Shown here: piece after piece, positions 4,083-63,808 of the stretch | How positions within the stretch are numbered: the stretch's first letter is position 1 | Layout: every line of letters begins with the position of its first letter | Assembly (NCBI GenBank): GCA_965238215.1 | Contig: OZ250180.1 | Span: 25,648-89,647, forward strand | Direction: 5' to 3' | DNA length: 64,000 bases | Source of the DNA: Dehalococcoidia bacterium | GTDB taxonomy: Bacteria > Chloroflexota > Dehalococcoidia > Lucifugimonadales > GCA-2712585 | Program-made: the position numbers and the translations under genes | Notes under the pieces: generated by a model | What the model saw: the letters and a program-made list of their open reading frames with translations, nothing else | Told to the model about the DNA's origin: nothing | Database searches by the model: none

Positions 4083-4372
4083 ATGATGTTAGATTGTCTC
4101 CGGCACTTTCTGAGAAATAGCGGGCTTTCGGGTCTTCTGACCTTAGCGGTGCTTGTACTATTTGTGGTCACCTGTAGCGAAGATGCGAAACTCCGCAGAT
4201 TACGATCACATCGCCATCGGTGGCCAGACCCTTGCCAACCAAGACTCCGACGGTATCACTAACTCCGAAACTGACAGCCGCTCGGATGCCTACATCTACA
4301 CCCACGCCCACACCCATGCCACCGCCAATGTCCGCCGCCGTACACACGCCCGCGTCCACACTTTTGGCCTAA
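4083..4372 (+). pseudogene. Lipoprotein stub: signal peptide plus Pro/Thr linker only, with a probable frameshift
   Basis: The ATG at 4083 gives MMLDCLRHFLRNSGLSGLLTLAVLVLFVVTCSEDA (lipobox VVTC). The Pro/Thr linker ETPQITITSPSV...PTSTPTPTPMPPPMS continues in another frame to the TAA at 4370-4372. No globular domain follows. Confidence 0.3.
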
Positions 4373-4574
4373 CGGTACTGAATTCATAACTCCTTGACTG
4401 CATCGGATGTTGTTCTCCTGGGCCGAGTTCATGGCCGAGGAGCCGGTCGGCGCGGGACGCTAGGCCCCAAGATACAGAAGGAGGGATAGCTTATCGTGGT
4501 GTCCTCCCCGTGACTGACCATGTATGCGGCCTTTTTCGTTGTCGGGGGGAAACGCCCGGCAGCGGCTAGTCACT

Positions 4575-5387
4575 CTAGTTCCCCGACTCGTCGTGGTGCC
4601 AGCCGGAGCGGAAGACCAGCCTGTCGTGCTCAACCAGCCAGAAGTGCTTGTCCTCGATCTCACCAGTGGCCGGGTTCACGTCCTCGTGAGTCACCCAGAT
4701 TCCCTTCCCGGTGTCCGCGAAGGACCCATCGTCGAGCATTTCTTCCAGGTGCACTCCCAATGCGTCGGCGTTGTAGTGGCTCAATATCTCGCCCTCGGGG
4801 TATGCGATGAACACGTACCACTGGGCGTCAACGCTGTCGGGGCTGTTGTAGTAGGCCAGGGTCGCCTCCAACCCGTCGGCGTGATACCGGGCGATGGCCT
4901 CGTCCACGACGAACTGGGTGTAGTCGGCGGGGGCTGACTTTGGCGGGATGGAGGCGACCACGCCACGGGCTATCTTCTCGGCTTCGTCAGAGGTGAGACC
5001 GGGTTCCGGCTGGGGCAAGGCCGCCAATGCCGTGCCGATGGCATCTTCCACGTCGGCGGAAGTGAGTCCGGGTTGTGACGCGGGTATTGAGGCGATGGCG
5101 GCTTCGACTATTCGCTCGACCTCCTCTTGGGACAGCCCAGATTCAGGCTGCGGCATCTCAGCCAGCGCCGCACGGATTGCCTCCTCTACATCGGCGGAAG
5201 TGAGTCCCGGCTCCGGTTGGGCCGGGGCGGGAGCGTCAGCCAACTCCTCACGCACGATCTCGTCAACATCGGCGCGGGATAGCTCAGTGTCCACGCCGCC
5301 GCAGGACACCAGGAGCAGGGCGACCAGCACCGCGAGCGCCATCAATGACAAAGGGGCCTTGGTCATCTTCTTCACGCTAGTTGGCAA
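4575..5387 (-). CDS. Lipoprotein with four tandem 23-aa helical repeats and a C-terminal Cache/PDC-like domain
   Basis: Signal peptide with lipobox LLLVSCGG. Repeats of the type PEPGLTSADVEEAIRAALAEM occur four times. The C-terminal part (VDEAIARYHADGLEATLAYYNSPDSVDAQWYVFIAYPEGEILSHYN) resembles single-Cache sensor domains. The start codon is uncertain (TTG at 5387 or ATG at 5366). Confidence 0.6.
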   Translation of the reverse strand: MPTSVKKMTKAPLSLMALAVLVALLLVSCGGVDTELSRADVDEIVREELADAPAPAQPEPGLTSADVEEAIRAALAEMPQPESGLSQEEVERIVEAAIASIPASQPGLTSADVEDAIGTALAALPQPEPGLTSDEAEKIARGVVASIPPKSAPADYTQFVVDEAIARYHADGLEATLAYYNSPDSVDAQWYVFIAYPEGEILSHYNADALGVHLEEMLDDGSFADTGKGIWVTHEDVNPATGEIEDKHFWLVEHDRLVFRSGWHHDESGN

Positions 5388-5601
5388 CTTCCTTCATCAT
5401 GTACCGGGTCGTGCTTTACGAGGGAATCCACAAGCCGCTAGAGGCCCTCGATGTCAGCCGACACCATGTGGCCTGAGTCGTCGGCAACGGCGTCGTGGCT
5501 CAAATCAGCGTCGTTTATTCCTTCCCCGCTCCTGCCTGCGGCATCCCTGATCCGTTGACCCGTCGTCATGCCAGGAACGGTCTCCCATCAGGGTTTACTC
5601 T

Positions 5602-6849
5602 TTACAACCTGCCCAGAACCACCGGTTCCGTAGCCGCGCTGGTCAACGATTCCCCATTCCCTGCGTCGTCGGTAAAGGTGACCCGCACCGTAATCACCTT
5701 GCCCTCGTCGGATGTTTGGAGCGTGTAGGTAGATGATGTCGCGCCATCTATTTCGGTGTCCCTGCTGGACAGCCACTGGTAACTCTAGCTGATATTGGTC
5801 AACCCGTCGGCGTCGGAAATCCCTGAGGTGTTCGCGGTCAGCGTCTGGCCCACTTGCGCCGTCCCGCTGATGGTGGGTACGCCCATCGCCGGGGTGTTTT
5901 CGCCGTCTCCCAGGACAAGAGATACGCCCCTGCCCGTTTGAATGCCGTTGTACTGGTAGCCGTCGTCGTCCTCAGCGGTCGCTGTAACCAGGAACGTTGC
6001 AGAATCTATGCTCACTGTAACCTGTGGATGCCCCGGATCCCCGGGAGTAACGGTGACCGGTGCACTGCGGATGCTGCCGCCGTTGATGGTGACTGCATCG
6101 ACAGACAGAGTGCCCCCGGTAGCGGACAGGGTCACTGACATGGAGAAGGGCGACCGATAGGCGACTTTGACCACGAAAGTGTTTTCCCCCATAGCTTCCA
6201 GTTCCGTCTTGAAGATGAAGGAGGACCCCGGGTTGTCGTCCAAATACAGCCTTTCCAGGCTAAAGAGGCTGTCGAACACGTCCTCGGGCAACGCGCTTAT
6301 CTGGTTATTGTTCAGCTCAAAAATGTCAGATTGTCGAGGCCGTCGAACACGTCCTCGGGCAACACGCTTGTCTGGTTAGTGTTCAGGGTAAAAATGTCAG
6401 GTTGTCGAGGCCGTCGAACACATCCTCGGGCAACGCGCTTATCTGGTTGCCATCCAAGCGCACACTTTTCAGGCTGTCGAGGCCGTCGAACACATCCTCA
6501 GGCAACGCGCTTATCTGGTTACCACCCAAGGACAACAATTCTAGGTTGTCGAGGCCATCGAAATCCCCGGAGTTAATTGCAGCGATGGTTTTTTGTAAGC
6601 TCCAATCCGCCTAATATCCCATTCAGGTCCGACTCGGTAACCAACACGCAGTCGCTTACGGCAGGCAGCCTGGCCAAGATCGCATCCTGCACTTGCTGGG
6701 TGCGGTCGAATATCGACGAGATGGTTGGCGCGGTGGTATCGGTCTGAGCGGAGACTGAAGGCAGGCCACCGGAGCCGAACAGCCCGACTATTCCCACAAG
6801 CAGCGCCGCCACCAGCCCCATTCGCCCATCTGCAGATTATTGGGTTCAT
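5602..6849 (-). pseudogene. Disrupted secreted LRR / Ig-like repeat adhesin
   Basis: AAGGAGG plus ATG at 6849. Signal peptide GLVAALLVGIVGLFGSGGLPSVSAQ. LRR units NQISALPEDVFDGLDNL. Ig-like repeat GTAQVGQTLTANTSGISDADG...YTLQTSDEGKVITVRVTFTDDAGN. The reading frame is broken in homopolymers at 6589-6594, 6390-6394 and 6319-6323, and by an in-frame TAG at 5785-5787. Confidence 0.7.
6271..6560 (-). repeat. Tandem LRR-coding repeat array (units of 71, 71, 72 and 72 nt)
   Basis: The GTCGAACAC-containing unit recurs at 6271, 6342, 6413, 6485 and about 6557. The first two intervals are 71 nt, not a multiple of 3. The later intervals are 72 nt. Confidence 0.85.
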
Positions 6850-7776
6850 GGTCACTGTTTCCTCCTTGATACAGTCATGTCGCTGGGCGGAGTCGGCTCC
6901 TCATCGTAGGTCGCCGCAAGAAGACAGAGGACGCCGCGTTATCGAGTCGAGCCGGGTTGAATCCAGCCGCCCGCGATGCGAGAGGGCCTGGCTGGAGGGA
7001 ATGAACGGGCCGGTCGCTAGGGGAGTGACGACATGAGTCGAGGCGGGCAGGGATGATTGACTTGAGTGCCGCGGAGTCCAACGAACGCGGCGTCGGGTGC
7101 TCTCGGTGCGGTCCCTAGGTCTATTGAAAACTGCGTCCCATTCAGGATGCAACAGCAGTCGGCCCTCCCACAGAGATGGCGATGCTAAACAACACACCGC
7201 AGGGGTTAGGATCAGCGTTACTGTGGATCCACCCACCGACACGCCGCTTGGAGACCGGGCCGACCCAGAGCGCAAACCACGTGCGCAAGATCTCCGCAAC
7301 GGACTGCCTGCTGGCGCTGACGTTGGCTTCACGGCTGCCTTTCTTCAATTCTCATGGTCTCGGTAACAGAGCGGGCCCGGGTCGAGTTGGCCGTCTCGCT
7401 GCTCGCATCTCGCTGACAGCTTTGCGCGGTCAGCAGGTGGCCAAGGCCGAGACCGTTGGCCAGATCGAGCAGCGCCATCAGATGGCGCGAGTTGGGTTGC
7501 ACGCCGGCAAGCCTCCACTTTTGTATTTCCCGCCTGTGGGCGACAGCCGATCGAATGCCCGCGAAAATGCCCTGCCAACGGGCGGGGCTGCATGAGGCTA
7601 TACAGCCGTTGTGTGATAATACCGTGCCGAACAAGCCCGCTACGGCGAGAAGTATCGTGTAATGTCTCGTCTCCTGCTGGAATGATTGACCCGACAATAG
7701 CCGGTTGGGATATATTTCGCAGCCGGCCCGTATCCCGTGGCCGACCGTGCGTCGGCCGTCTAAGAGAGGGGAGAAT

Positions 7777-7926
7777 ATGGTGAAATACGATGAGAATGGT
7801 CTGGAGATAGAGGCGCTGCGGGAATCTGTGATAGCAGCTATCTGCGGGATCTGCGGATACCTTATCTTCAGGGGAATCAAGAGTTGGATGAAACGGAGGG
7901 GAACCCTGGAGGGCGTTCTCGGTTGA
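7777..7926 (+). CDS. Hypothetical 49-aa protein with one hydrophobic helix
   Basis: ATG at 7777 preceded by GAGAGGGGAG. Sequence MVKYDENGLEIEALRESVIAAICGICGYLIFRGIKSW. No recognisable family, and it may be non-coding. Confidence 0.25.
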   Translation: MVKYDENGLEIEALRESVIAAICGICGYLIFRGIKSWMKRRGTLEGVLG

Positions 7927-7942
7927 ACCAGCTGGCGCAGCC

Positions 7943-8899
7943 CTAGTTCAAGATGCTCAGATACGCCTCTTCCAGGGTGGGTTCCCGGACAACCAAGCTG
8001 AATATGTCTGTCTTCGGCATCCTGTCCTCCAGGTATGCACTTATATCGAAGTCAGGTGAGCCGTGCACTATGAGCTGCTGCATGGCGTCCTCCGTTCCTT
8101 CGGTGACCCGCTGGACATCTTCCAGTGAACCAATCTCATCCACGAGCTCGGGGACGGGAGTTCTTAGCGTAAATTGAGTTATCTTAACCGTGCTGAATGT
8201 GCTCTTGATCTTCGCGGGAGTGCCAAGTGCGGCGAGCTTACCTTTGTCTATGATTCCTATGGAGTCGCAAAGGGTATCGGCCTCGAACATGTAGTGGGTG
8301 GTCAGAAGCACGGTCGTACCGCCTCTGGCCAGAGTAGGTATCAGCTGGCGAATTTCGTGGGCGCCTACGGGGTCCAGACCTATGGTGGGCTCATCCAGAA
8401 AGAGCACTTCCGGGTCCATGAGAAGTCCTCTGGCAAGATGTAGCCTCTGCTTCATTCCTCTGGAATACTCCTCTACCAGTGTCTTGGGCCGGTCCGTGAG
8501 GCCTACTAGTTCCAAGAGTTCGCCGATGCGCTTCCCCGCTTCGCCGGGTTTCATGTGATTTAGGGCGGCGAAATAGCGCAGGTTATCCTTTCCAGATAGC
8601 CGGCCATAGAGTCCGCGCTCCCCGCCGAGGACAAGGCCTATCCGCTTCCGTACCTCGTTGGATTCCTTCACAAGGTCAAATCCCAAAATGCGTGCACGTC
8701 CGCTTGTTGGAGTGAGAAGGGTGGCGAGTATGCGGATGGCGGTGGTCTTGCCGGCGCCGTTGGGCCCAAGGATGCCGAATACTTGTCAATGGGAGACATT
8801 GAGGTCCAGAGCATCAAGGGCGACGGTGGAGCGCGACTGGCCCAGTAGACTGCGGGACGTGTAAACGCGTCCGAGGCCCTGGCAGGTTATGGCGTCCAT
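7943..8899 (-). pseudogene. ABC transporter ATP-binding protein (ABC-2 exporter type) with an in-frame TGA
   Basis: ATG at 8899 gives MDAITCQGLGRVY...LDLNVSH, then TGA at 8786-8788, then [15 protein letters not shown] (Walker A). Downstream are YSRGMKQRL (signature-like), LLFLDEPTIGLD (Walker B) and the H-loop TTHYM. The stop sits where this family usually has Gly. Confidence 0.75.
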
Positions 8900-8943
8900 T
8901 GGGGACCTATCCATTCAATCATGGCTGCCTTCCTCGATGCGGG

Positions 8944-9738
8944 CTAAATACCCTGCTGCTCCATTATACCCCGGCGTTTCAGCTCCCGCTCCGCAAAGAT
9001 GAAGCCCAGGTAGCCCGCTAGAGCATAGCCGAGTGCGACGATAGCCTCAAGAGCTAGGTTTGCTCCCACGTCTCCAATGCCCGCTCCTGCTAGTGAATCC
9101 CTTAATGCCACAAGCCCGTGGGAGATTGGCAGAATCTGAGCAATGCCCTCAAATGCTGTCGGCAAACTTGATACCGGCACCACCATGCCGGTCAACCCAA
9201 CAAGAATGCCCAATACGGCCATGTAAAGGTTCTGCCAGTCGCGCAGCAGCAACGTAAGACCGCCCAAGAACAACGCGAACATGATTAGAGCGGTAACAAT
9301 CAAGAACACAGATGCCAATAGAGTTCCCCAGTTAGCGTTGGAGAAATCAAGATCCAGAATTAGGACTCCGGCGAGAAAGCCCATAGCGATGGTGAAGAAA
9401 GCATAATGGTAATGGACTATGCCCCGGGCAAAATAATGTACATAACGGCTGACTGGAGGCAGAAAGACGGTTGGAAGGGTCCCTGTCCATTTCTCCCTAT
9501 AGAAGCCCAGGGTCACCTCATTTGCTAAGAGCAGCATTGCTCCATTGACCGACATTCCAACGACGATTTGTCGGGTCAGGCCGGGGTCGAGGGCAAAGGC
9601 AGCCAGGAATCCGAAGCCAAGCATCATGAAAACCGATACCATGACTGCGTTCAGGATGTACGCGGAGGGCGTGGACCAGTAGAACCGTGCCCTGTAGCCG
9701 AGGTAGGTCTGCAGCCATATGTTGGTAAGGCTCGGCAC
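8944..9738 (-). CDS. ABC-2 type transporter permease
   Basis: GTG start at 9738, 7 nt after GGGGAGGA and 2 nt after the upstream permease stop. Six predicted hydrophobic helices and an ABC-2-like pattern (YLGYRARFYWSTPSAYILNAV...). Confidence 0.8.
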   Translation of the reverse strand: MPSLTNIWLQTYLGYRARFYWSTPSAYILNAVMVSVFMMLGFGFLAAFALDPGLTRQIVVGMSVNGAMLLLANEVTLGFYREKWTGTLPTVFLPPVSRYVHYFARGIVHYHYAFFTIAMGFLAGVLILDLDFSNANWGTLLASVFLIVTALIMFALFLGGLTLLLRDWQNLYMAVLGILVGLTGMVVPVSSLPTAFEGIAQILPISHGLVALRDSLAGAGIGDVGANLALEAIVALGYALAGYLGFIFAERELKRRGIMEQQGI

Positions 9739-9740
9739 TA

Positions 9741-10540
9741 TTAGATCCTCCCCAACATTCCTGAACTTCGCACCATGCTCTCCACTTTCTTGAACATCCA
9801 CAGGGTCGCCAACAACCAGATAATGGACAGAGCACCGGTCATGGCCCAGTCGAAGAGTACCTCGGATGTGAATCCGGCGCCCCTACTGGCCAGCGCTGCG
9901 GCGTGCATACCCCAAGAGGTGGGGAATACCCATGCGATGGGATCCAGATAGACTGGAAGTACGTCAATGGGATAGAGAAACCCGCTGAATACTACCCCGA
10001 AGGGCGCCACCGCGTTGACGTAGCCCCTGCCACCGCCGCTGAGTACGTAGAGAGGGGAGAAGAAGAAGCTGACGATGATCAGTGCGATAGAGACCAACAG
10101 AATAGATAAAGCAAATACTGGCAGACTTGAAATCTGGGGGAGACCGTCGGCCACGATGGTTAATACAAAGAAAGAGATGGGCGTTGAGATCGCAGCGACT
10201 GCAACTATGTACGAGGACCCTTCCCAGGACAATTACCGCTAAGGGGGTCGGGGCAAGCAGCATCGTATCGACGGTCTGGTTCAAGAACTCAGCCTGAAGG
10301 GTATGTCCTGCCCGAAAGCTTGTCAGGTGCCAGATAGTGAAGAATATGGCGCCAAAGGTCACGAACGCCAGAACTGCCGGGTCTGGGTTCTTGCCCACTA
10401 TCCAACCCATGATTGCCATGTAGGGCACAAAGATGAGGAATATGGAAAGACTTCCCCAGTCCGGGAGAAGCTGCTTCCACTGCAGGATGAAGGATGCTAT
10501 CAGGGCCCGGTGGTATCCGATGATTCTCTCCCCGTTTCAC
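9741..10540 (-). pseudogene. ABC-2 type transporter permease, interrupted by two frameshifts
   Basis: Three track ORFs (10289..10540, 9964..10428, 9741..10232) tile one permease. MKRGE... then IIGYHRALIASFILQWKQ...TMLLAPTPLAVIVLG then SSYIVAVAAISTPISF... The shifts fall at the C4 run 10530-10533 and near 10218-10220. Confidence 0.65.
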
Positions 10541-10706
10541 AACTTGAAAGGGCGATGGGGGTAGAAGAAGATTCTCTCAAAACTCCGATCTATTTCCAAC
10601 CTCTTTTATTCCCCTTGGCCTGATCTGGTTGGATCTCTTCATTCTATGACTACTTCGCATTTCCGTCTCATATTCCTGGTACGACGGTCTGGCCGATGGG
10701 CAACTT

Positions 10707-22963: not shown

Positions 22964-23439
22964 ATGAAAGAGACACAAGAGCATCTTGGATGGCAGCTGT
23001 TTAGAATTGCGTCGAACTCTATCCCTGCTCCAGTTGATGCGGGAAGCGATGACCGGAACGACGCATACTGCTTCATCGGCAAGATATCCCCGAAGGGAAC
23101 CGATGGATCGATTAATTACACCCACACCGGTATCAAGGATCGAGATGAGCGGACCGTTAATATTCCTCTTACCTTCAAGGCCGAAGTGGTGTCGAAGGCG
23201 ATGGACCCATCGATCTGCACCTCAGGATCGACGAGAACAACTGGGATGAAGTAATGAGGCGGACGAAATACATCCGCGGCTCCGGCGTTGACACGTTAGT
23301 GTTCGGCTACAAGGTTCTTCCAGGCGATATAGAGGCCAAGGGCATCTGATTGATTCACGGTGCAGAAGCGGCCTATTTCGGTGACGATGGCGCCATGAAT
23401 GCCAAAGATACAAACACCGAGCACAATCCCGTGGGGTAG
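22964..23439 (+). pseudogene. Small adhesin-type Ig-like domain gene, frameshifted and with an in-frame TGA
   Basis: Strong RBS AAAGGAGGGG before the ATG at 22964. Frame 1 reads ...ERTVNIPLTFKAEVV. The domain continues in another frame as GDGPIDLHLRIDENNWDEVMRRTKYIRGSGVDTLVFGYKVLPGDIEAKGI, then TGA at 23347-23349, then LIHGAEAAYFGDDGAMNAKD, to the TAG at 23437-23439. Confidence 0.35.
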
Positions 23440-25984: not shown

Positions 25985-26209
25985 ATGACTTCGCCGGAAC
26001 GTGGGAGGGTCTCCAGACAGATAACCTCTTCATCTACTGTTGGTGACAGAGATGTTTACCATGCCGGCGAGCCTATAGCGATTGTAGGTATGTCGTGCCG
26101 ATTCCCAGGAGCAGGTGATTTGGAAGCGTTTTGGCGACTTTTGTCAGAGGGCAAGAATGCGGGTGATGAACGCGGAGACCTTCGTCTACTCTTAACCGCC
26201 ACCTTTTGA
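25985..26209 (+). pseudogene. Polyketide synthase stub: only the N-terminal about 30 aa of a ketosynthase domain
   Basis: [31 protein letters not shown] (26069-26161) is the signature start of type I PKS KS domains. The ORF ends 16 codons later and no frame continues the KS. Confidence 0.5.
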
Positions 26210-26322: not shown

Positions 26323-28948
26323 GTGTTAATGAGAGAAACGCCCTCGGAGAAGTTCAGCGCTTTTCTGGAGAGGCGTTCCGGCTGGATAGTGATTGGGGTG
26401 GTCATTGTCACCCTCCTGCTTATCGTTCCACTCATAGCCCTGGCGCCCGATGAGCAGGCTTCCACGGAACCTGACGGGCCCATCTTCGATCTGCGAGACC
26501 TGGTTAATGAGCGCTTTCCTCAAGCGCTCTACGTCCCGTCCTACATTCTGGAATCCCCCGACGGCCCGGATGGCGACGTTCTGACCCAGGCCGCGCTGTG
26601 GGAACTATTCCAGAATGAGGAAGCCCTGCGTCGTGCGGACGAGCGCGGTGAACTGCACCCTCCCAAGTTGGAAGACCAGCCCTATTTGTTTAAGGTCAAC
26701 AACCCAAACACTCAGCGCCCAATCCACGGCATCTACTCCGTTGCTGACGCTGTTCAAGCCGTCCTGGCCGAAATGGGTACGGATTTGGGAAGCGCGAGTG
26801 ATGAAGACGTGAAGATGGCTCTTCATTTCGTGTTGCAAGAAGGGTCTCCAACTTTCAGCCTGATGCAGTCGTTATCTGAGAAGGCCACGTTTACCCTCGA
26901 GGACTCGGATTGGATTGGGCGGTACCAGCGCTGGCGCTCTCCAGCCATCATAAACTTCGTGATTGCGGACAACGGCAGGCTAGGTGGGGGGGGCCCAGAC
27001 TATCAACGTTGGTGGCGATGAGACTGTTGTACAGAAGGAGCACTTTGGCCGGAACGTACAGAAAATCCTGAGGGGCGAGGAGCGGAACTACCGACTTTGG
27101 GGTGTTGCCGTTGACCCCAATCTGGAGTCCTAGGATGAAGGACGCACGACCGTTCCCTTCGTCTTTGCCACGGTGCTGGCCGTACTGGTGGTAATCGGGA
27201 TAAGCCTACGCTCGTTGAGGGCGGTGTTCCTTTCCGCCGTAGGCCTTGGCATGCTAATTGTGTGGCTGAAGGGCATATCCAATCTAATAGGCCTCAAGGC
27301 GGGCCTTGTGGTAGAGCTGATAGTGCCCATTGCCATGATCTCCTTGGGCGTAGACTTCGCCATCCACGCCCTTCATCGATACAGGGAGGAACGAGGCAAA
27401 GGAATAGGACCGCGTCCTGCTCTCAGACTGGGATTGGCCGGAGTGATGGGAGCGCTCGTGCTTGCCATGCTCACCGACGGCGTGGCCTTCTTCTCCAACA
27501 CGGTTTCCGGGATAGAATCCATAATCGGGTTCGGTGTTGCAGCCGGTATAGCCGTAATCTCCTCATTCGTAATCATGGGGATATTCGTGCCTTTGGTCTT
27601 CATGCGTCTCGACGGGCGCAAGAAATCCGGCCAAGCCGTCGCTAATCCGGCACAGGGAGCAGATACCTCTCCCGATAACAGTCAACCCCGCAGTTTTCTC
27701 AGAGCGGAGTGGGTTGTGGTGAGGCTTGCTCGGAGTCGCCTCTTTGTGCTTCCTGTTGTGGCTGTAGTTACCGGCGCTTCCCTGTTGCTCGCCTTCAGGC
27801 TGGAGGCCCAATTGGACGTCAAAGATTTTTTCGATAGCGAGTCGGACTTCGTGGTGGGACTGGACAAGCTCGACTATCATGTTGGGACAACTCAGGGCGA
27901 GCCTGGGATCATCTATATAGAGGGGGACCTGTCGTCCACCGATTCCCTTGAGGCCCTCAGGGAGCTACACGCAAATCTAAAATCCAACCCCCACGTGGCC
28001 AAAGGAGTTGATGGAGAGCCGACTTTGTACAGCTGGACGATCTTTGACCTGATGGAGCGTCTCATCGGCAGCGAGTACGCCCGTTCCCAGGTGGAGTTTG
28101 CCACAGGGCAGGTCATCACCGACTCGGACGGAGATGGAATGCCTGATAGCCAGGCCCAGATCAGAGCGGCCTTTGACTATATTGTGGAGTACGGTATTCC
28201 ACTGGATGAGTCTACTCCGTCCTTCACGCCGACCCAGGTGCAAGGCAGCCTCTTCCACGATCCCACCGGACGCACCCCCGACGCTCTCAAGATGTTGGTT
28301 GGCCTGCCCGGTACCAGGGAGCAAACTGCCGTGTCCAGGGCACAGCAGGCCGTTGAGGCCGACCTGGAGTTTCTCAAGGATGTACCCTCCATCTCTGCTG
28401 CGGGCCTAACCGGCTCCGCATTCACCAGGGCGGCCTCCCTGGATGCCGCCGTGCGTTCGCTGCTCATCTCGCTGCCCATTGCCGTAGCCGCCTGCTTCCT
28501 GGTGGCGGCACTGTTCATGCGTTCTGTGCGCTATGCCTTTGTGACCATTATTCCCATAGGCCTGGTGGTTGCATGGCTCTACGCGATGATGTATCTGCTG
28601 GGGTTTGACCTCAACTTTGTAACGGCCACTATCGGTGCCATATCCATCGGTGTGGGGGTGGATTTTTCCATTCACCTCACCCAGCGGTTTCGTGAGGAGA
28701 TGGCGCGGGCGGGGGATGGGATACTAGCGATAGAGCGGGCTGCCAAGAGCACGGGAATGGCCCTTATTGCGTCGGCAGCCTCAAGCGTAGCAGGCTTTGC
28801 GATAATGGGCTTCGCCCCGATGCCCATGTTTTCTGCGTATGGCACTCTCACCGCGGTGATGGTATTCATGGCCGCAGCAGCTGCGCTGCTAGTGCTGCCT
28901 TCCCTGCTTTTGGTGGTGACGCCGCAACGGCAACGGGTAGATGCTTGA
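26323..28948 (+). pseudogene. MMPL/RND-superfamily membrane transporter, frameshifted and with an in-frame TAG
   Basis: Track ORFs 26323..27021 and 27173..28948 are joined by frame 2 (AQTINVGGDETVVQKEHFGRN...VDPNLES, then TAG at 27131-27133, then DEGRTTVPFVFATVLAVLVVIGISLRS). The frameshift is in the G8 run 26986-26993. There are two 6-TM bundles with ...SLRS.../...FMRSVRY... motifs. Confidence 0.7.
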
Positions 28949-30662: not shown

Positions 30663-31753
30663 GTGCACAGCCAATTGGAACTGCATGAAGCACTCATCTC
30701 AATCGGTCTGATCATTGTTGTTGCAAAATTGCTGGAAGGTGTATTCAAACGATTCGGCCTTAACTCGATAATCGCCTACGCCACCACCGGAGTGATCCTT
30801 GGTCCCGCGACCGGACTAGTGGAGGCGGGGACCGAGGTCGAGGTTATCCTGGGCATAGGCATCTTCATATTCTTCTTCCTTATCGGCTTAGAAGAACTGG
30901 ACATTAGGGGATTCTTTCGGGTTATTCGCGGGCGTCTCTGCCTCACGTCGGTATTGTCTGTGACCATATCACTTTTGGTGTCCCTGTCGGTTACCACCGA
31001 CACTTTGTTCGATTTGGGGTTAGACCTCGATTTTACGCAGGCATTGGGATTGGCCGGGGTGCTCTGGCGGGTAAATTTGCCGGCTCGTTTATCAGCGCCT
31101 ACATTACGCGGCTCGATGCTCCCTTCGCGACAGCCACAGGTCTGATGGCCAAAGGAGTGGCTGAAATTGCGATTCTGCTCCTGCTGCTCCACACAGGGGC
31201 AATCGACAAGGGAGTATTCTCTTTGTTGGTGCTCGTCATGTTCGGGTACATCCTATTGACGCCCATGGGCATCAGTTTTGCGCTCAAAAGGCTCAAACGC
31301 CCCGAGGCCGTTACTACACAAGGACAAGTCCCACCGTCACTAGTCCGGTTCGCCCTGGAAGGAATCAGGGTTCAGGACGTCCTGGACCGCTCTCGGAGTC
31401 ATCCTGAAAAGTCGCTATCGGTAAAGGCGTTTGCAGAGACTTGGCTTTTTCCGAAACAGCACGATTACGTGGTTGTGGACCATTGTAAGCTCGCCCGCAT
31501 AGCGTCGCTAAGCATGCTGCGCTACCTCCCTCGGAGTGAGTGGGAGCAAACTTCCCTCAGCAGGGTGATGCGTCAAAATACGCCGAATGCCTACGCCGAC
31601 GAATTGGTGGAAGATGCGCTCCAGCGAATGATTGAGGAGTCTTTAACCGTACTCCCTGTTGTTGATAGGGAAACAGGGGAGTTGATAGGTTCAATCTCCA
31701 GCCACGAAGTATTGGAGATGATTGCGCTGACCGCCAGGGGTCACGAAATCTAG
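30663..31753 (+). pseudogene. Cation:proton antiporter (CPA2-like) with a C-terminal CBS pair, carrying an out-of-frame internal deletion
   Basis: The N-terminal 5 TM helices (...FTQALGLAGVL) switch frame near 31065 to LAGKFAGSFISAYITRLDAPFATATGLMAKGVAEIAILLLL (the last TM helices). This is followed by CBS-like VQDVLDRS...YVVVDH... and ...LTVLPVVDRETGELIGSIS. Roughly 180-200 aa of a normal TM core is missing. Confidence 0.65.
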
Positions 31754-47993: not shown

Positions 47994-49248
47994 TTATTGG
48001 CGTTTTGGTAAGATTACAGTCATTTCGGTATGTTGACCTAGCGTCGAATCCACCTTGACATTGCCGCCGTGTTCCCTGATCACATCGTAGGCGAGGCTCA
48101 ATCCCAGCCCGGTATTCCTTATGCTCTCCCTAGTTGTGAAGAAGGGATTGAACATCTTTTCCTTTACCTCTTGTGTCAGGCCAGTACCGTTGTCGCGGAC
48201 CAGTATCGTGAAGCCGTCTTCCGTGCTGGCCGTAGCGACTTTCAGTTCGGGCTGGTAGTCGCTTGCGCTTTCCCTGGCCTTGTACAACATCGCCTGACAG
48301 GCATTGGATACTAAATTCGCTATTACTCTCGCCACATCTTCGGGCACCACGATCACTTCTTCAAGCCTCGAATCCAGTTCCATTATTATCTCTGCGAAGA
48401 AGTCTGAGTCATGTACTTGCACGGCCCTGTGAGCTAGATCGGTCTGATAAGCCACCAGTTTGTTTAGATCCACGGTGCGGAACCCACCCGCAGTGCCTCG
48501 ATCCAGCGTTAGCATGGCCGACACGATCCCATTAGCCCGAATACTATGGTTAACGATCCGTTCCATGTTGTCCGAGAGGTCTTCAACGAGTTCTTCGGCA
48601 TCTTCTCCAGCGAGCTGGCTGGGCTGTTTCATCATGTCCTTCAGCTCTAGCGCAATTTCTTTTGAGGAGGAGGCAACATTGCGGATGAACTGGAGGGGAT
48701 TGCGCATCTCGTGGGCTACGCCTGATGAGAGCTCCCCGAGTTCAGCCATCTTCTGCTGGCTGATGATCTGGTCCTGTGAGCGCCGGAGGTCTGTCAACGC
48801 CTGTTCCATCTCATCATTCTTATCCCGCGGTTCATCGGAAAGCTGCTGCACCCTATCTAGCTGCAACGCCCTAATGGAACTCTGGCGTAAGGTTTCCAAC
48901 GCTTCACAGGCCTTGGACACCTCGTCGTTTCCCCATGGCTCAATGCGGTGGTCAAAGTCTCCCATGCCCAGCCGCCGAATCTAAATTTCGATGGCCACGG
49001 TCCTGACACCGGTGAAGATGGTGAGGCCACCCATCGCTAGCGCTAAAAACTGGGGTGACCGCTGCCAGGGCCATTAACAATGTTTCGCCTTCCCGGAGAG
49101 CGTATACGTTCATGGCCGTGATCAGGCTTAGAATCAAGAACAGCAAAATGACATGTTGCACCGAGTATCGTCGGATACTGAACTTGGACATACCGAGCGG
49201 ACTGTTCGATTCTGTGGGTTTCTGGTAGGGAGCGGGTCTGCTCGTCAT
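47994..49248 (-). pseudogene. Membrane sensor histidine kinase (TM-HAMP-HisKA-HATPase), frameshifted and with an in-frame TAG
   Basis: H-box SGVAHEMRNPLQF, N-box and DNGTGL/GLGLSL ATPase motifs are in ORF 47994..48965. The HAMP reads ...TVAIEI, then TAG at 48981-48983, then IRRLGMGDFDHRI. The N-terminal TM ORF (48952..49248) joins after a shift in the A5 run 49045-49049. Confidence 0.7.
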
Positions 49249-57059: not shown

Positions 57060-57584
57060 CTACAGTTCTCCAAGCAGCCGGTCTACCAGCCTCTTCAGTG
57101 GCCCTTCCGTCTTCGTCGGGCCGACGACCTTTGAGATCGACGACAACTCCAGGATAGAGTCTTCCTCATTGGCGGCAGCCTCCACCGCCGCCAAGGCTTC
57201 CTGCCACGGCTGGGCATCATTAGGGTCGAGGTCGAGGGGGGAAAAGCCAGCGGGCAGCGGCAGAGTGAACATTGATTCACTTTCGGCTCCTACCAGTAGG
57301 ACCAGGGTGGGATAGGAGTCATCCTCTAAGCCAAATTCCCGCAACAGACGGCGTGCGGTGGAGGACAGGCCGTGTTGTCCGAAGATGGCAAGGTGCCGAA
57401 AGCCGGCGTTGAGAGACTCGAAGCTGCTGCGAAAGCTACGGAATACGTCGTGGGCCAGACGGTCCTTTGAGGATACTAGGAACATCGCGTGTACCGGGAA
57501 ATGCCTGTTGGGTTCCTGGGATAGGGCGTTAGCCCAACGTGTCAACTTATCTCGGTCGTGGTTTTCGGCATAGATGTTGCTCAT
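57060..57584 (-). CDS. Hypothetical protein, 174 aa
   Basis: Clean ORF with an ATG start and plausible globular composition. I recognise no motif. Confidence 0.5.
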   Translation of the reverse strand: MSNIYAENHDRDKLTRWANALSQEPNRHFPVHAMFLVSSKDRLAHDVFRSFRSSFESLNAGFRHLAIFGQHGLSSTARRLLREFGLEDDSYPTLVLLVGAESESMFTLPLPAGFSPLDLDPNDAQPWQEALAAVEAAANEEDSILELSSISKVVGPTKTEGPLKRLVDRLLGEL

Positions 57585-58095
57585 GATAATTTCACCAAAT
57601 TCTTGGGGCCAACGATGGAGCTACTTGCCCAACCTGCAATAGAAAGTTCTCTCGTCTCGAGCTCTTCATCATCCATAGGCTTGTGTTCGTATTGCTTGCC
57701 TCACGATGACTCCAAAATCCCATAAGAAGTCATCGCTCAAAGATACAAGAGAATATAAATCATCGTTACAACCACGTCGCCTGTTTCCCTAAAGTCCATT
57801 GTGACAAAGCCATGCTCCCCAAGGATTTACGCAAGAAAGTCCGATTCTGCTTAAACGCCCTTGATACACGCCTAGGGGGTATCCAACATCAGGCGCCGTC
57901 ACTGTGCAAACACTACCATAGTTATCACTACCGCTCACGTGCCATAAAGCGTGTCCTATTATCACCTGAAGAATCGACTTGACTTTGGGCACTTTCGGAA
58001 ACCTTGCGTAGAGTGGAGTTCGCGGAATCGGTTTCATAGACTTGCGACAATATATCGACTAAAATTCAGAGCAGGTAAATTGAGGAGCGACAACT

Positions 58096-58920
58096 TTGGA
58101 AGATAAGGATTTGAAGGATTCCAACTACATAATGGGTTACAGCGGCGAATTTCAACAGCTTCTACGCCGCCGCAGCGCTGAGACCAACGCGGCCCACCTG
58201 CTGCCCCATCTAAAGCCAGGTCTTCGCCTCTTGGACTTCGGTTGTCGGCCCGGGTCGATTACTGTTGGGCTGGCTAATGCCGTTAATCCAGGCGAGGTCC
58301 ATGGCATCGACATGGAAGAGTCTCAGATTAACGTCGCCAGAACCGTCGCCAAGGCAGGCGGACATGAAAACGTATTTTTCCACGTTGGTGACGTGACCGC
58401 CCTACCTTTTAAGGACAACTTCTTCGACGTGGCCCACTGCCATGCCGTTCTAATGCACGTTCCTGATACTACGGCTACTTTGGCCGAAGTAAAACGGGTC
58501 CTGAAATCCGGCGGAATAATCGCCAGCCGAGAGATGTTCATATCCTGCTCCTTCTTGTCACCTCAAGACGGCGGAGTGGACGACGCGTGGGCGGTCTTCG
58601 CAGATCTGCTGACCGCTAACGGCGGGCGCCCTGAAATGGGTACGGAGTTGAAAGACACCTTTCTTCAAGCAGGGTTTCGAGGCGTCCGCGCCGGGGCTTC
58701 CTTTGACTTCTTCGGTACGAAGGAAGACGTTGAGTTTATTCACGGATTTATCAGCGACTGATTCTATACTCCCGATGTTATGGCAGCAGCTATCAAGTTG
58801 GGTCTTGCCACGCAAGAGCAGTTCGGCAGATGGCGCAAAGAGCTAGACCTCTGGAGGGATCATCCCGGCGCTTGTGGCGGCTTCGCCTTCGGCCACGCAA
58901 TCGCCTCCAAGCCCGGCTAG
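58096..58920 (+). pseudogene. Class I SAM-dependent methyltransferase with an in-frame TGA and an altered SAM-binding loop
   Basis: LLDFGCRPGSITVGLA (canonical GxGxG reads G-C-R-P-G), FDVAHCHAVLMHV, LKSGGII. After FISD comes TGA at 58759-58761, and the frame continues FYTPDVMAAAIKLGLATQEQFGRWRKELDLWRDHPGACGGFAFGHAIASKPG to the TAG at 58918-58920. Confidence 0.65.
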
Positions 58921-59155
58921 ACCTGTATTGGTACTGGGTTGCCCGTATCCTCTCCTTGACATGGGCTAGCCTAACTGGCGGACCACCGCTCCGAAGGGAA
59001 TCAACTGGGTTAAACTAGTCCTACCTTCCGGATCCACCTCACCCCTTAGCCTGCCAGGCCTGCAGCCCCAACTTGACGTCCGTTCCGGCCATCGCGAGAA
59101 GTTCAGCGGATGTAAGGGCCTGGGCGTCAGTCGATTCCTGAAGACCGGAGGCGGA

Positions 59156-62100
59156 TTACCATCCCCTGGTAATTATGCCGTATACGAGGCCGATCAAGGC
59201 CAGAACCATCAAACAGGCTATCGCCAGAAGGATTATCAGCCAGAGGGGCACCGAAGCAATAGCCAAAGCCAAAGCTACCAGACCGGCTATTATCAGAATG
59301 TTAACTATCCAGAGGGGCATAGAAGCAATGGCCAACAAACCGACCATTATGAGTAGGATAATAAGCCAGAGTGGAAGTCTACTCCGGGAGTCGTCTTCGG
59401 CTGCGGTTGTTGTGGGTTCCGGTGCAGGCGTAGCTGTCGTCCTTGGGGATACAGGCGCCTTCTGCACGGGGACCACGGTAGGTTGGCGCGTGGCAGGAGA
59501 TGAAGGCGCCTGGGAATCCTGAGAGGCCGGCTGCGTTGGCTGCGCCGAGGGCGTGGGACGTGATATCGAGGTCCTGATGGGAACGGGCGCAGCAGTCGGT
59601 GTTGGCGTCGCTGGAGTCGGAGCTGCCGTGGGTGTTGGCGCCGCTGGAGCCGGAGCCATCACGGTAGGCGCCGGCGTGGAGGCTGGAATCCTGCGCAAGG
59701 ATACGGCGGGAATGGGTTTTCGCGTGAGACCCTCGGTGGTGCTTGGTGGCTCCTCAAGCGCCGATGATGCAGCCGGGTCGAGTATGGGTTGAAGCACAAG
59801 GGCGTAAGAGGGGTCTGAATATCGGGTGACAATTGGTCTTATGATCGCATCATAATCCCGATCGGGGTCTAGGGATCGCACGATGGGAGGAGCTATGACA
59901 GTCACGATGACGTAGCTAGTGGCAGACAGGCCTCCGGCGTCGCTGCCGGACAGTTCAAACGACAGGGAACCTTCCCCAACCGGTGAGACTGAAAGCGAAT
60001 TGCCATCCAAGGTTGCTGACACCACGGTGGAGTCAGCCGGGCCATCGAGAGAATAGATTAACGAGTCGCCGTCCGGGTCGGTGAAGAACTCGTCAACTTG
60101 CACAACCGCCGGGCTGTCTCCAACAGTGAACTCAAACCCAGGTATTTCGGAGCTCACGGGAGCTTCATTCACGTTGGACACTGTAACGGCTACGTCGAGT
60201 TCGGAAGACACCTGCGGGTTACCATCGTCCAGGGCGGTGACCGTCAACGAGTGGACGTTGCTCGCTGCCGCACTACTGGGTGTCTCAAAATCAAAGGCGC
60301 TCTCCAGCGAAAGGTTTCCTTCCTCATCTATCTGGAAGTTGGCGGCATTGAGCCCTCCTACGGACCAGGTGATGGCATTGTTTTCAGGGTCCTCCACCTG
60401 GTATTGAGCCAGAAGACCAGTTTCGCCCTCTGGGATTGTAAGCTCGGTATCGCCGCTGATGGCGCCGAGCTCATTCTGGTTAGTAACGCGAATGCTCACG
60501 TCCTCCGAATCGTCTTGGCTGGGAGAGCCGTCGTCGGATACCCTTACTCTGATCTCGTATTGATTGTCTCCGTCGCGGTCAGCAGGACTTTCGAAGTCTG
60601 GAGGAGTTTTGAAGCTCAGCACACCGTCATCGGATATCTTGAATGTCTTGCTGTCCAGACCGTCCACGTGCCATGAGAGATCATCATCGTCGGGGTCGCT
60701 ACCATGAAACGTGGCGACCGGCCCCGTTCCGTTCTCCTTATACCGCAGACTATCGTCGTCGACGTCCAGTCTAGGGCGTTGATTGGACCTGGGGCGGATC
60801 CCTCCGCTGCTGCTACCGCCACCACCGCTCTTGGTCGATACTGTGGTCGGTGTCGGGCGCCTCTCAGGCTCGATTGTTTCCGGTTCAGATGCGGGAATGC
60901 TTGTAGTGAAATCACTGAATCCGCTGATGTTGACGACTTTAATGGTGCCGCGGCTGCCATCAGTCTCAAAGGTGTAACATTCGGACGTTCCGACTGGGTC
61001 CGGGCACTTCGGTATCTCAGACCAAGACCCGGCTGTCCCGTCGCCCTTGTACAGGGAGAATGTATCGGCAGTGATGGCGGTCTGCACCGCGGTGGCCTGG
61101 GTTTGGTTCAAGGTCAGGACCATTTTGGCGTCCACGTCCAAGGCCTCGTCAATGGGATTCGCTGCCAGGTCAAAAAGGTCCACGGAGAGACAGAGATACT
61201 CATTGTTGGTAGGGGCCTCCGAGCTGCAGTCATCGCTCTCCGGATCAATTCTCGCCTGGAAGTATTCGGTCCTGGACCCGCTGGGGAAAGTGACAGTCAG
61301 TCTGTCTGCGGTGACCGGAGTCTCTTCGTTGGGATCAACTATCCCCGACATCTCTGTGTTTGTGCGTAGGTCCGGCTTTGTGTAGACGACTACTGTGAAA
61401 TTCGTGTGTGCCGAACCGCCACCGTCGGAAGCCGTGACGGTTACGGTTGTCACGCCGGGTGAGACGGCAGTAATCGTCACGGTGCTCCCGGATACAGAGG
61501 TGGTGGCCTTGGTGGAGTCCGTAGGACTTGCAACGTAGGTCAGAGTATCGTCGTCGGGGTCTGTGAAATAGCTGCTGAGGTCTACGGTGCCGGAGCCGTT
61601 AGTTGGCACGTCTTGCCTTGGAATGGATAAATTTCTTGTCTGCGGCGGAGAGTTATTCTGAGGCAGATCGTTGCCATCCAGCGGTATTGGATGCCACAAT
61701 CCCAAAGTGTGCCTGTAGCATATCAGGAGGACAGCCCCGACTTCGCTTGTCGTGTATTTAATCTGGAAGACGTTTTTACCTTCCAAAACAGTTACTTCCC
61801 CATGATTAGCATAGTTGAAGCTGTTTGAGCCGTTATCATCTATAGAGATGTGGGAAACGCCACCCCCGTCCTTTACCACCAGATCATCATGTTCGCTCTC
61901 CGCCCACAACAGGTATCTACCCGGCGGACCATCGTTAACATCTTCTATATAATGAGTGTAACTGCCGCCATCGCAATAGGCTTGGTCATGCGCCTGAGAC
62001 ACACTGGTTGCGAGCGCGAGCATAACGGCAGTTGCCGCTATGACCAAGAATAGCCACACGACGCCTCGCCATAGGCCCTTATAAATACTGGAACTGACGG

Positions 62101-62161
62101 TTCCGCCAACGAAAGCAATTATCGCCGGGTTCAGTCGAGTTTTCGAGAAATACTGCGACAC
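59156..62161 (-). CDS. Large cadherin-repeat surface adhesin, paralog of the protein at 2..2473, with an N-terminal signal anchor and a triple C-terminal TM segment
   Basis: Signal anchor VVWLFLVIAATAVMLALATSVSQA. Ig-like domains (DLSSYFTDPDDDTLTY, VDEFFTDPDGDSLIY). Two cadherin-like repeats ending VTNQNE / VSNVNEAP. Gly/Ser run. Ala/Pro/Thr stalk. Three consecutive PLW-initiated hydrophobic segments. Confidence 0.85.
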   Translation of the reverse strand: MSQYFSKTRLNPAIIAFVGGTVSSSIYKGLWRGVVWLFLVIAATAVMLALATSVSQAHDQAYCDGGSYTHYIEDVNDGPPGRYLLWAESEHDDLVVKDGGGVSHISIDDNGSNSFNYANHGEVTVLEGKNVFQIKYTTSEVGAVLLICYRHTLGLWHPIPLDGNDLPQNNSPPQTRNLSIPRQDVPTNGSGTVDLSSYFTDPDDDTLTYVASPTDSTKATTSVSGSTVTITAVSPGVTTVTVTASDGGGSAHTNFTVVVYTKPDLRTNTEMSGIVDPNEETPVTADRLTVTFPSGSRTEYFQARIDPESDDCSSEAPTNNEYLCLSVDLFDLAANPIDEALDVDAKMVLTLNQTQATAVQTAITADTFSLYKGDGTAGSWSEIPKCPDPVGTSECYTFETDGSRGTIKVVNISGFSDFTTSIPASEPETIEPERRPTPTTVSTKSGGGGSSSGGIRPRSNQRPRLDVDDDSLRYKENGTGPVATFHGSDPDDDDLSWHVDGLDSKTFKISDDGVLSFKTPPDFESPADRDGDNQYEIRVRVSDDGSPSQDDSEDVSIRVTNQNELGAISGDTELTIPEGETGLLAQYQVEDPENNAITWSVGGLNAANFQIDEEGNLSLESAFDFETPSSAAASNVHSLTVTALDDGNPQVSSELDVAVTVSNVNEAPVSSEIPGFEFTVGDSPAVVQVDEFFTDPDGDSLIYSLDGPADSTVVSATLDGNSLSVSPVGEGSLSFELSGSDAGGLSATSYVIVTVIAPPIVRSLDPDRDYDAIIRPIVTRYSDPSYALVLQPILDPAASSALEEPPSTTEGLTRKPIPAVSLRRIPASTPAPTVMAPAPAAPTPTAAPTPATPTPTAAPVPIRTSISRPTPSAQPTQPASQDSQAPSSPATRQPTVVPVQKAPVSPRTTATPAPEPTTTAAEDDSRSRLPLWLIILLIMVGLLAIASMPLWIVNILIIAGLVALALAIASVPLWLIILLAIACLMVLALIGLVYGIITRGW

Positions 62162-62729
62162 TTTTTATCACCAGATGATGGAAGGAGTATCTGGGTTGAA
62201 TTGAGTTTCTCTTGTTTCCAAATGGAATTTTTGGATTCCCTAATAATCTTAGAGTGTCGCTCTTAAACCCTTCTAGTAATTTAGCGTCCTGCTTTTGCGT
62301 ATTTTCTAGTAAAATAGGCCAATATCTTCCAGAAATCTCTCATTTGAGTGGATGGGTAAGGCAACGGCAAGGCAGATCGGTGTGGTAGAAGGCAAGTTGG
62401 CACGTTAGTCAAGATGTCCAGGCATGATCGAATGCCCAGAAAGGGCGGTCAGGAGGGGCCGGTAGAGAGCGTGGGTCGGGTGTCGTTTGAAGTTTGTTGG
62501 GGGAGCCGATAGGGCGACGGGCTTAGGCAGAGCAGGCAGGCAACGGCCCGTTACCCTATCCGTTCACCTGCAGCATGAAAACGTGTCTGGAGAGCCGGTC
62601 CGATCGTGTGCCGGTGAGCTACTCTGAGCCGGACACAAACGTCTCTGGCGAAAGAAACTTGGCGAGTGCGTTCCTGCCAGACTTCTCGTCGGGTTGGTCA
62701 ATGGACTTCCGCCATTGACCACAGGGCAA

Positions 62730-63808
62730 TCAGGCGAACGTAAGAATTCTCGCTGGATTGTAGATCATCACCTGACGAATGTGTTCTTCGGGAATACCGC
62801 GGTCACGCATCCTCGGCACGATGTTTTCAATCAGGTGGCCGTAGCCGTACCCGCCATAGGTGAAGGTACGTGCTTTGGAGAACACGTCCTGGGCAAGAAC
62901 TATCTTCTCGAGGTGGCCATGCTCTTTGAGCAGCTGCACGTAGTCGAGCCTTTGCCCGTCGTGGATCATGTCGTGGGGGCCCAGGGAGTAGTAGGACGAT
63001 TCCCAGCCGGAGAGGTCGTACTCCAGCATCGAACTCCGGTCGGCGAATTCCAACAGGGTGGCAGAGTCGAGAATCGTCCGATCCAGGTGCCCCATGATGA
63101 CCCGGCTGCTATCTGCGCCTGCCTCTTTGAGGATATCCAGTATCTCGAAAGGAGCGCGCGGATTGCGACCGGGATGAATGAGTATTCCGGCGCCGGTCTT
63201 TTGCTGTGCCCGGGCGCCCGCCCGAAGCACCTTCCGCTCGTTCCGGGTTAGCGGCCAAGAGCAGCCCAGCTCTCCGATTATACCGGCCCGAACTTCCGTA
63301 CCGCCGACTCCAACAGTCAACTCGTTAATCATCTGTGATGCAAGCTGTTCCTCTGAACGGTCGTCCATGTCGGAAGGGTGCACCATGTCTACGTAGTACC
63401 CCGCGCCCATTACTATGTTAACTCCCGTCGCCTGGGCAACATTTACAAGAGCCACGGGGTCCCTGCCTATGCCGATCGTGGTAGCGTCAACGATCGTCCC
63501 TCCCCCGGCCGCCTTGAACAGGCCGATCTCGTATATCGCCATTTTTCGTCGAGCAGCTCAAGATTGTCCTTGTTACGGAAGGGGTCGTACCGCACCCAAC
63601 CAAGGTTTCCCAGCGCCACCTTCTCCTCGCACCGATTCTTGGAGCCAGCCTCCGACGTAGGTGCGTACATGCACACGAAATCTATAAGGACGTGCTCGTG
63701 GGTGGAGGTCATCCCCAGCGTGGAAGGATCCACTGTGCCAAGGATGGTCTGAACCTTGCCGGAAAGTTGTGAGTTTGCCAGAGGTTCACCTCGACGTGTT
63801 TGATCCAT
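62730..63808 (-). pseudogene. Phosphotriesterase-family (PTE/PHP) metal hydrolase split by one frameshift
   Basis: N-terminal ORF GKVQTILGTVDPSTLGMTSTHEHVLIDF (HxH) ...NKDNLELLDEK. The frame changes in the T5 run 63542-63546 (A5 on the coding strand, A6 would restore it) to MAIYEIGLFKAAGGGTIVDATT...ILIHPGR...IMGHLDR...NPARILTFA. Confidence 0.7.

Follow-up and report, generated by a model that had tools for sequence, protein, structure and literature searches.

Broken genes in a 64-kb stretch of a Dehalococcoidia-like Chloroflexota genome point to recent and ongoing gene decay

Does a bacterial sequence crowded with interrupted reading frames record genes that are dying, or errors made in reading the DNA? 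This question is raised by the 64,000-nucleotide stretch analyzed here in full (positions 25,648 to 89,647 of contig OZ250180.1, assembly GCA_965238215.1; 'the window' in the following). An earlier look at its letters, referred to below as the original prediction, had listed six in-frame stop codons, eight frameshifts mostly in homopolymers and one deletion junction, and had favored ongoing gene decay over an indel-prone assembly. Judging by protein matches, the source would be an uncultured, Dehalococcoidia-like Chloroflexota bacterium. The window contains no Ns, has a G/C content of 56.3% and sits on a contig of 3,055,267 bp, i.e. a genome of ~3 Mb. We conclude, with a probability of roughly 85%, that this ~3-Mb Chloroflexota genome is undergoing real, recent and ongoing gene decay.

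Our analysis covered the 64-kb window plus its flanks and loci of about 20 kb in the relatives. The window was compared with a low-coverage (5-6x) second assembly of essentially the same strain (ENA ERZ26167216), whose contigs correspond to 707-21407 (L084), 17175-34706 (L081) and 52917-64000 (L085) of the window, and with a sister strain (L082, ENA ERZ25766727, 3x) that is 96.8% identical over 23227-29779 and 94.6% identical over 32662-38298. Further comparisons were made with a syntenic relative (L086, ENA/NCBI ERZ25072854, 62x, a 2.85-Mb contig) that is ~92% identical over 7816-20443, with a 1.70-Mb contig (L083) that bears an intact orthologue of the MMPL transporter, and with hundreds of orthologous proteins of the MMPL transporter, the histidine kinase, the phosphotriesterase, the leucine-rich repeat (LRR) family and a 128-aa protein.

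All six stop triplets and the listed homopolymers are present where the original prediction had put them. Of the six stops, five stand in place of conserved sense codons and one is ambiguous, while seven of the eight listed frameshifts are real and one, at 10530-10533, is not. About 10 of roughly 40 loci had been expected to be hit; we count 11 dead or remnant loci among about 40 (about 27%; Table 1), including a polyketide synthase (PKS) ketosynthase remnant and a 38-codon ABC-2 permease remnant that had not been itemized before, as had neither a 1-nt deletion at 23192. Ten of these disrupted or remnant loci were checked against orthologues or family profiles, and the eleventh (22964-23439) against the second assembly and homologues. 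Comparison of orthologous loci, which had been proposed as a check, found sense codons or intact frames at the lesion sites in the relatives, and the ancestral state of the broken loci, as read from these relatives, is intact. Intact coding sequence makes up 63% of the window, pseudogenes 17% and other non-coding DNA 20% (12.9 kb). In a simulation, 15 lesions landed on nine or fewer genes with P = 0.03, i.e. the lesions are clustered.

Table 1. Dead and remnant loci in the window (coordinates are window positions)
Locus	Coordinates	Strand	Lesion or remaining part
LRR + Ig-like-repeat surface protein pseudogene	5602..6821	-	Three frameshifts and TAG 5785-5787; frame walk and family alignment
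ABC-2 permease remnant	7810..7926	+	Final 38 codons only
ABC transporter ATPase pseudogene	7943..8914	-	TGA 8786-8788 in place of Gly, just ahead of Walker A
ABC-2 permease A pseudogene	9741..10536	-	+1 nt insertion at about 10209-10220
Small (128 aa) repeat-domain protein gene	22964..23439	+	1-nt deletion at 23192 (compared with L081) shifts the frame
Polyketide synthase remnant	25985..26209	+	First ~31 residues of the ketosynthase domain left
MMPL/RND transporter pseudogene	26329..28948	+	G8 frameshift 26986-26993; TAG 27131-27133
Na+/H+ exchanger-CBS pseudogene	30675..31753	+	Out-of-frame internal deletion, junction near 31058-31076
Histidine kinase pseudogene	47994..49248	-	Frameshift 49045-49056; TAG 48981-48983 for Trp at the HAMP start
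S-adenosylmethionine-dependent methyltransferase pseudogene	58132..58920	+	TGA 58759-58761 in place of Trp; Pfam
Phosphotriesterase-family pseudogene	62730..63808	-	One nt missing from an A6 run (63542-63546, T5 on the + strand)

Each of five stop codons can be set against a sense codon in a relative or in the family. TAG 5785 on the reverse strand falls, as had been proposed, on the Tyr position of an Ig-like repeat, where eight of eight family members carry Tyr or Phe (motif 'LTNVSYSYQW'). The TGA placed before the Walker A motif of the ABC transporter ATPase is a Gly codon (GGA) in the syntenic relative, whose 318-aa orthologue is intact (93% amino acid identity), and the Pfam ABC_tran profile (1-136) aligns straight across it. 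TAG 27131, assigned to an MMPL gene from the start, is CAG in the sister strain and Gln in all orthologues ('NLESQDEG'); the intact orthologues measure 871-872 aa and are 73-87% identical. In the HAMP domain of the histidine kinase, the predicted TAG 48981 (reverse strand) stands where 12 of the 12 orthologues covering the site have Trp, and the TGA reported for the methyltransferase is TGG in the L085 haplotype of the second assembly. The sixth stop, TGA 23347-23349, had been counted as disruptive, and this part of the claim is ambiguous: homology runs on past the stop and distant homologues have Gly there, but the closest homologue (80% identity) ends exactly here and three more divergent proteins of 128-129 aa end within a few residues, and it is therefore a normal gene end or an old truncation. 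That the locus is broken still holds, through the deletion at 23192, which is found in the window and is absent from the second assembly, i.e. polymorphic.

For the frameshifts, the picture is similar. The three homopolymer shifts proposed for the LRR gene (near 6319-6323, 6390-6394 and 6589-6594) each break the register of an otherwise regular 24-residue repeat; after repair the protein scores 132.9 bits on LRR_8, and the pseudogene sequence is identical in the second assembly (L084). Two of these shifts (within 6312-6406, reverse strand) hit consecutive repeat units at the same point ('DNLTFL'), at a distance of 71 nt, which looks as though repeat conversion or duplication had copied a single lesion. 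In permease A, the shift expected at about 10218-10220 exists, as the syntenic relative reads 'VLGRILAIVAVAAIS' in a single frame and the window holds one additional base; its exact placement in the CCC run does not stand, since the insertion maps to 10209-10220, within a patch of substitutions and not in a pre-existing run. The shift proposed at 10530-10533 has to be dropped altogether, for the identical C4 is found in the same relative, whose operon is intact. The 39 codons that follow this C4 differ from the relative by seven changes, all in third codon positions, and this stretch is therefore translated in that frame. These 39 conserved codons lie between the upstream stop and the first ATG (10420-10539, reverse strand) and include no ATG, GTG or TTG; going by this pattern, permease A probably uses a non-canonical start, perhaps ATC.

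The MMPL run at 26986 is a G8 in the window, and the reading frame of the intact orthologues implies G7, in line with the predicted frameshift; the one orthologue examined as DNA, on the 1.70-Mb contig, has G6 and a different flanking codon. The region of the MMPL lesions is identical in the second assembly (L081). Intact orthologues of the histidine kinase (417-420 aa, up to 90% identity) read 'AAVT-LFLALAM' and 'VAIEIWIRRLG'; thus the predicted shift is real, while its location in the A5 run at 49045-49049 is not assured, as it may lie anywhere in 49045-49056. In the phosphotriesterase gene, where a shift at 63542-63546 had been called correctly, intact 350-aa orthologues (at least 90% identity) read 'LLDEKMAIYEIG', which needs A6, one A more than the A5 of the window. 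The repaired protein matches the PTE profile over 1-298 of 298 (278 bits), and the lesion is identical in L085. A scan of metagenome contigs for this phosphotriesterase gave a 57% relative as its best match.

Larger losses complete the list. The deletion junction predicted near 31065 in the Na+/H+ exchanger gene is confirmed by a frame walk and by a truncated Na_H_Exchanger profile, of which 2-114 of 375 remains, followed directly by CBS, so that most of the membrane domain is gone; the second assembly (L081) is annotated here with two genes of 156 and 202 aa. From the ketosynthase, a piece at 26069-26164 matches 2-32 of the 252 positions of the Pfam ketoacyl-synt profile. As this region is conserved at 96% of amino acids in the sister strain, the PKS was probably lost before the MMPL lesions arose. 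The remnant lies directly upstream of the MMPL exporter gene, an arrangement that recalls the PKS-MmpL lipid export clusters known from actinobacteria. A tblastn search with the 234-aa permease of the syntenic relative recovered residues 197-234 at 79% identity, and the remainder is absent from the window. The segment 3877-7816 around it (lipoprotein gene, LRR pseudogene and a 1-kb spacer) corresponds to 4040-7111 in this relative, where an insertion sequence (IS; DDE_3 and helix-turn-helix) and a second ABC-2 permease gene pair are found; the window retains 38 codons of one of the pair.

The alternative that survives best, though we consider it improbable, is a sequencing or assembly artefact, in which a long-read consensus with homopolymer indels and occasional miscalls would break genes that are truly intact. 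Five or six of the nine frameshifts do fall in runs of 5-8 identical bases, the comparison contigs have a low coverage of 3-6x, and the G8 common to three assemblies despite purifying selection on MMPL resembles a systematic miscall. However, five of the stops are substitutions at conserved codons for which relatives have a sense codon, and the exchanger deletion, the 31-residue ketosynthase remnant and the 38-codon permease remnant are impossible as base-calling errors. Moreover, the shift at ~10209 is not clearly homopolymeric and the kinase shift at 49045-49056 is not pinned to a run; the lesion spectrum as a whole comprises substitutions, deletions and non-homopolymer indels and is not confined to homopolymers. 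An independent assembly had been named as a further check. Indeed, the lesions recur base for base in the second assembly, which matches the window without a difference over 3727-19683, 23193-34706 and 59383-64000, with every lesion in these stretches included; the two histidine kinase lesions lie outside its coverage. Because tracts of single-nucleotide polymorphisms (SNPs) separate the two elsewhere, the second assembly is not the same consensus.

The behavior of runs and indels points the same way. In the ~39 kb shared by the two near-identical assemblies (707-34706 and 59383-64000) no disagreement in homopolymer length was found, and the intact genes contain 55 runs of at least 5 bases and seven of at least 6 bases, all of them unbroken. 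Comparison of the window with L081/L084, L082, L085 and L086 gives 41 indel events, of which only three fall in intact genes and none shifts their frame: one is at a start codon, and the remaining two form a compensating -2/+2 pair. This avoidance of intact genes is significant for the three divergent comparisons (P = 0.007, 0.0008 and 1e-7) and not for the near-identical L081/L084 comparison with its two indels (P = 0.22); it is the signature of real mutations filtered by selection. Methylation-motif miscalling finds no support either: the window keeps 216 intact CCWGG sites, and the CCAGG to CTAGG change at the MMPL stop is therefore not a methylation miscall. From this comparison of assembled sequences rather than raw reads, the lesions are in the DNA and not an artefact of assembly, as the original prediction had preferred on the strength of its stop-creating substitutions; the second assembly, the sense codons of the relatives and the large deletions now add to these.

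How old is the damage? When the window is compared with its relatives, the ratio of nonsynonymous to synonymous substitution (dN/dS) comes to 0.12 in MMPL, 0.11 in the ATPase, 0.09 in the methyltransferase and 0.08-0.13 in permease A. Overall, the dead genes range from 0.08 to 0.14 and not near 1 (neutrality rejected at P < 1e-5), comparable to their intact neighbors (0.06-0.33, with one small 175-aa ORF at 0.65). Given these low values, purifying selection acted on the dead genes during almost the whole divergence, and their death is very recent; read together with the lesions themselves, the low dN/dS is a mark of very recent inactivation and not of continued gene function. Furthermore, strains with 97-99.9% identity carry different lesions in the same genes (MMPL, methyltransferase and kinase). 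MMPL is hit by the TAG in the window and by a +1 at 26411 in the sister strain. The L085 haplotype, for all its TGG at 58759, carries its own methyltransferase indels, -1 at 58246 and +2 at 58678. In relatives (P0215/P0218 and P0201), one of them on a 3.11-Mb contig, the kinase has frameshifts at two further positions. That decay is ongoing, as had been proposed, is thus borne out by the low dN/dS of the dead genes and by lesions that vary among such close strains. Some genes that the window has in intact form, e.g. the one for the Rieske protein, also have shorter counterparts in the 90%-identity clusters; these counterparts may reflect breaks or truncations at contig ends.

The methyltransferase preserves a further trace of its history, since its motif I reads GCRPG in the window instead of GCGPG; the sequence suggests that the window lineage had a frameshift here, followed by a nearby compensating insertion. 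At the same place (58231-58257), L085 has the canonical GCGPG and shifts -1 right there.

A special case is the G8 of MMPL, which is also present in the sister strain, within a segment of unusually low dS. We considered that it might be an old lesion inherited by descent and rejected this, given the MMPL dN/dS of 0.12 against the very strain with the same G8. According to the aligned sequences, each lineage has a second, independent MMPL lesion besides the G8. The window's is the amber codon at 27128-27134, where CCAGG has become CTAGG relative to the sister strain. The same low dN/dS could be taken to mean that some lesions are switches, with the G8 and perhaps short A/T runs being phase-variable or rescued by slippage in genes that remain in use, and the two LRR frameshifts at the same position of consecutive repeat units would fit this as well. 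We regard it as slightly less credible even than the artefact: the G8 has a constant length across all three assemblies, MMPL has in addition a TAG in the window, which is irreversible, and a +1 of its own in the sister strain, the LRR gene carries a TAG too, and runs of 5-6 bases are short by the standard of contingency loci. Recoding signals such as a slippery heptamer did not turn up, although no search was aimed at them. Finally, a reassignment or programmed read-through of TGA and TAG, which six such codons in conserved proteins with homology continuing after each might suggest, can be dismissed, as the two codons would stand for four kinds of residue (Gly, Gln, Trp and Tyr), all three stop codons end intact genes (TAG and TGA 24 of 29), close strains have ordinary sense codons at these sites, and the affected genes carry frameshifts as well. 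Of these 29 intact genes, 19 end in TAG and five each in TGA and TAA; to our knowledge TAG is usually the rarest bacterial stop codon, and its dominance here is unusual.

We therefore return to gene decay, which would proceed in this genome as follows. Selection would be relaxed on an accessory subset of genes, namely those for the ABC-2 and MMPL exporters and a cation antiporter, for an LRR surface protein and an orphan sensor kinase, and for the methyltransferase, phosphotriesterase and PKS. Mutations of the ordinary kinds, from slippage in short runs and indels outside homopolymers to deletions and nonsense changes (C-to-T, G-to-A and transversions), would then be left unpurged, and a gene once dead would go on collecting further hits. 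The cause would most likely be a small effective population or a niche shift, e.g. host association. Several points weigh against this account. The G8 shared between strains may reflect recurrent slippage, recent recombination or a systematic miscall, and a homopolymer bias common to all assemblies may likewise affect the G8, T6 or A5 runs. The contig names look like those of metaMDBG assemblies, usually from HiFi reads, and a platform read from names alone may be wrong; the independence of the two near-identical assemblies may also be incomplete. No expansion of IS elements is seen in the window. The genome-wide extent of the decay is extrapolated from 64 kb plus flanks and may differ, and host restriction may not be the cause at all. 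A wider interpretation, which we offer only tentatively and hold to be less likely to be right than wrong, is an early, strain-resolved erosion across a clade of ~3-Mb Dehalococcoidia-like genomes, possibly sponge symbionts, in which co-existing strains independently and very recently lose the same exporter, sensor, surface and secondary-metabolism genes after a recent shared shift in selection (host restriction or adaptive loss).

Pfam searches on the 20 longest ORFs found the tail of a giant adhesin (cadherin, DUF11, fn3 and Calx-beta), eukaryote-like repeat proteins (fn3/LRR/F5-8C, 1195 aa; cadherin/Big, 1001 aa; TPR and VWA), an aerobic metabolism (KatG, GMC oxidoreductase, Rieske protein, thiamine pyrophosphate enzyme and acyl-CoA synthetase) and transport genes. 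Some protein matches of the window genes carry the names Dehalococcoidia or Chloroflexi. Against GTDB species representatives, the ABC-F protein has its nearest relatives exclusively among metagenome-assembled genomes (MAGs) of Dehalococcoidia, but at just 66-70% amino acid identity, and no synteny with Dehalococcoidia loci from GTDB was found beyond this gene. A sponge host is plausible and only suspected; hints are the eukaryote-like repeat proteins and the style of contig names (e.g. ctg478059_6.38x_l), which is similar to that of HiFi/metaMDBG metagenomes released together with sponge genome notes.

Neither tRNA genes in the window nor tRNA or Rfam RNAs in its spacers were found. Searching the spacers with the ORFs of the relatives returned conserved spacer DNA only and no further recognizable gene remnants, and X-masked concatenates of the gap ORFs (first third) gave little beyond CrcB, ABC and LRR matches; a codon-usage frame plot was too weak to separate coding from non-coding sequence. 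The syntenic relative has an intact ABC-2 operon, yet it also has long spacers and an IS element (DDE_3), and low coding density therefore seems to be clade-wide.

Some further observations concern the neighboring DNA. The ORF at 1-2473 is the tail of a protein of 3,838-3,902 aa, whose upstream part is found in L084 and L086; the precomputed Pfam domains of the L086 orthologue are fn3, peptidase S8, P_proprotein and Calx-beta, and the tail is 85% identical to it in nucleotides with a dN/dS of 0.24. A 210-codon ORF (19832-20461, forward strand) has 88% amino acid identity to L086 but is uncalled in either assembly, and its codon-position G/C content is atypical. The SNP tracts that distinguish the second assembly are found at 20770-22647 (16 SNPs, 12 of them inside the ABC-F gene) and at 53041-58860 (~3% divergence over 5.8 kb). 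Both have perfectly identical flanks and look like homologous recombination between co-existing strains.

For work with such genomes, these results mean that the broken genes of this long-read MAG are biology and not noise, and that completeness estimates and annotation pipelines will be misleading in this lineage if they take fragments for genes or for errors. The clade is an uncommon opportunity to follow how erosion begins outside the usual insect and pathogen models, and could reveal which functions go first and what shares homopolymer slippage, deamination and deletion have. If the host is a sponge, Chloroflexota would join the few sponge symbionts known to be eroding. Our literature search found no report of pseudogene-rich symbionts, or of such a pattern, for Dehalococcoidia-like Chloroflexota.

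The massive gene decay of Mycobacterium leprae, reportedly described by Cole and co-workers in 2001, offers an obvious comparison: it likewise combines multi-lesion pseudogenes beside intact neighbors with low coding density and long non-coding stretches, and its casualties include transporters, sensors, PKS and MmpL-type genes. The pseudogenes of M. leprae are old, however, and the species is clonal, whereas the window belongs to a different phylum, Chloroflexota, and its decay is much younger (dN/dS about 0.1, lesions differing among 97-99.9% identical strains). M. leprae as the source of the window itself, which the G/C content, MMPL, PKS and pseudogenes would suggest, was rejected on the Pfam content and the genome scan. 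On the level of single mutations, the lacI work of Coulondre and Miller is said to have located amber hot spots at Dcm sites, where 5-methylcytosine deamination turns CCAGG into CTAGG; TAG 27131 is exactly this change relative to the sister strain, a likeness drawn from sequence context, which only one of the six stops has.

Incipient genome erosion is also known from Sodalis, Shigella and Yersinia pestis, all of them recently host-restricted. The available part of a study on 'Streptomyces philanthi' (PMC8092579) describes the same for another such bacterium. With these cases, as far as that part goes, the window shares recent inactivation, lineage-specific lesions in the same genes, a mix of short-run frameshifts and nonsense mutations, and the early loss of accessory sensing, transport and surface functions; it differs in that no IS proliferation is visible, with one DDE_3 element in the syntenic relative. 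The closest match in numbers comes from the Tethybacterales sponge symbiont Sp02-1 (Waterworth et al. 2021, PMC8546597), a bin of ~2.95 Mb for which the accessible sections give ~25% pseudogenes and a coding density of 65%, interpreted by the authors as ongoing genome reduction. These figures nearly match those of the window (about 27% of loci, 63% coding; window only), although Sp02-1 is a betaproteobacterium and a sponge origin of our genome is only suspected. Strain-resolved parallel lesions are a feature of the present data and were not met in those sections. Genome erosion is a known phenomenon that appears here in a new lineage, and the new aspect is its strain-resolved capture at a very early stage.

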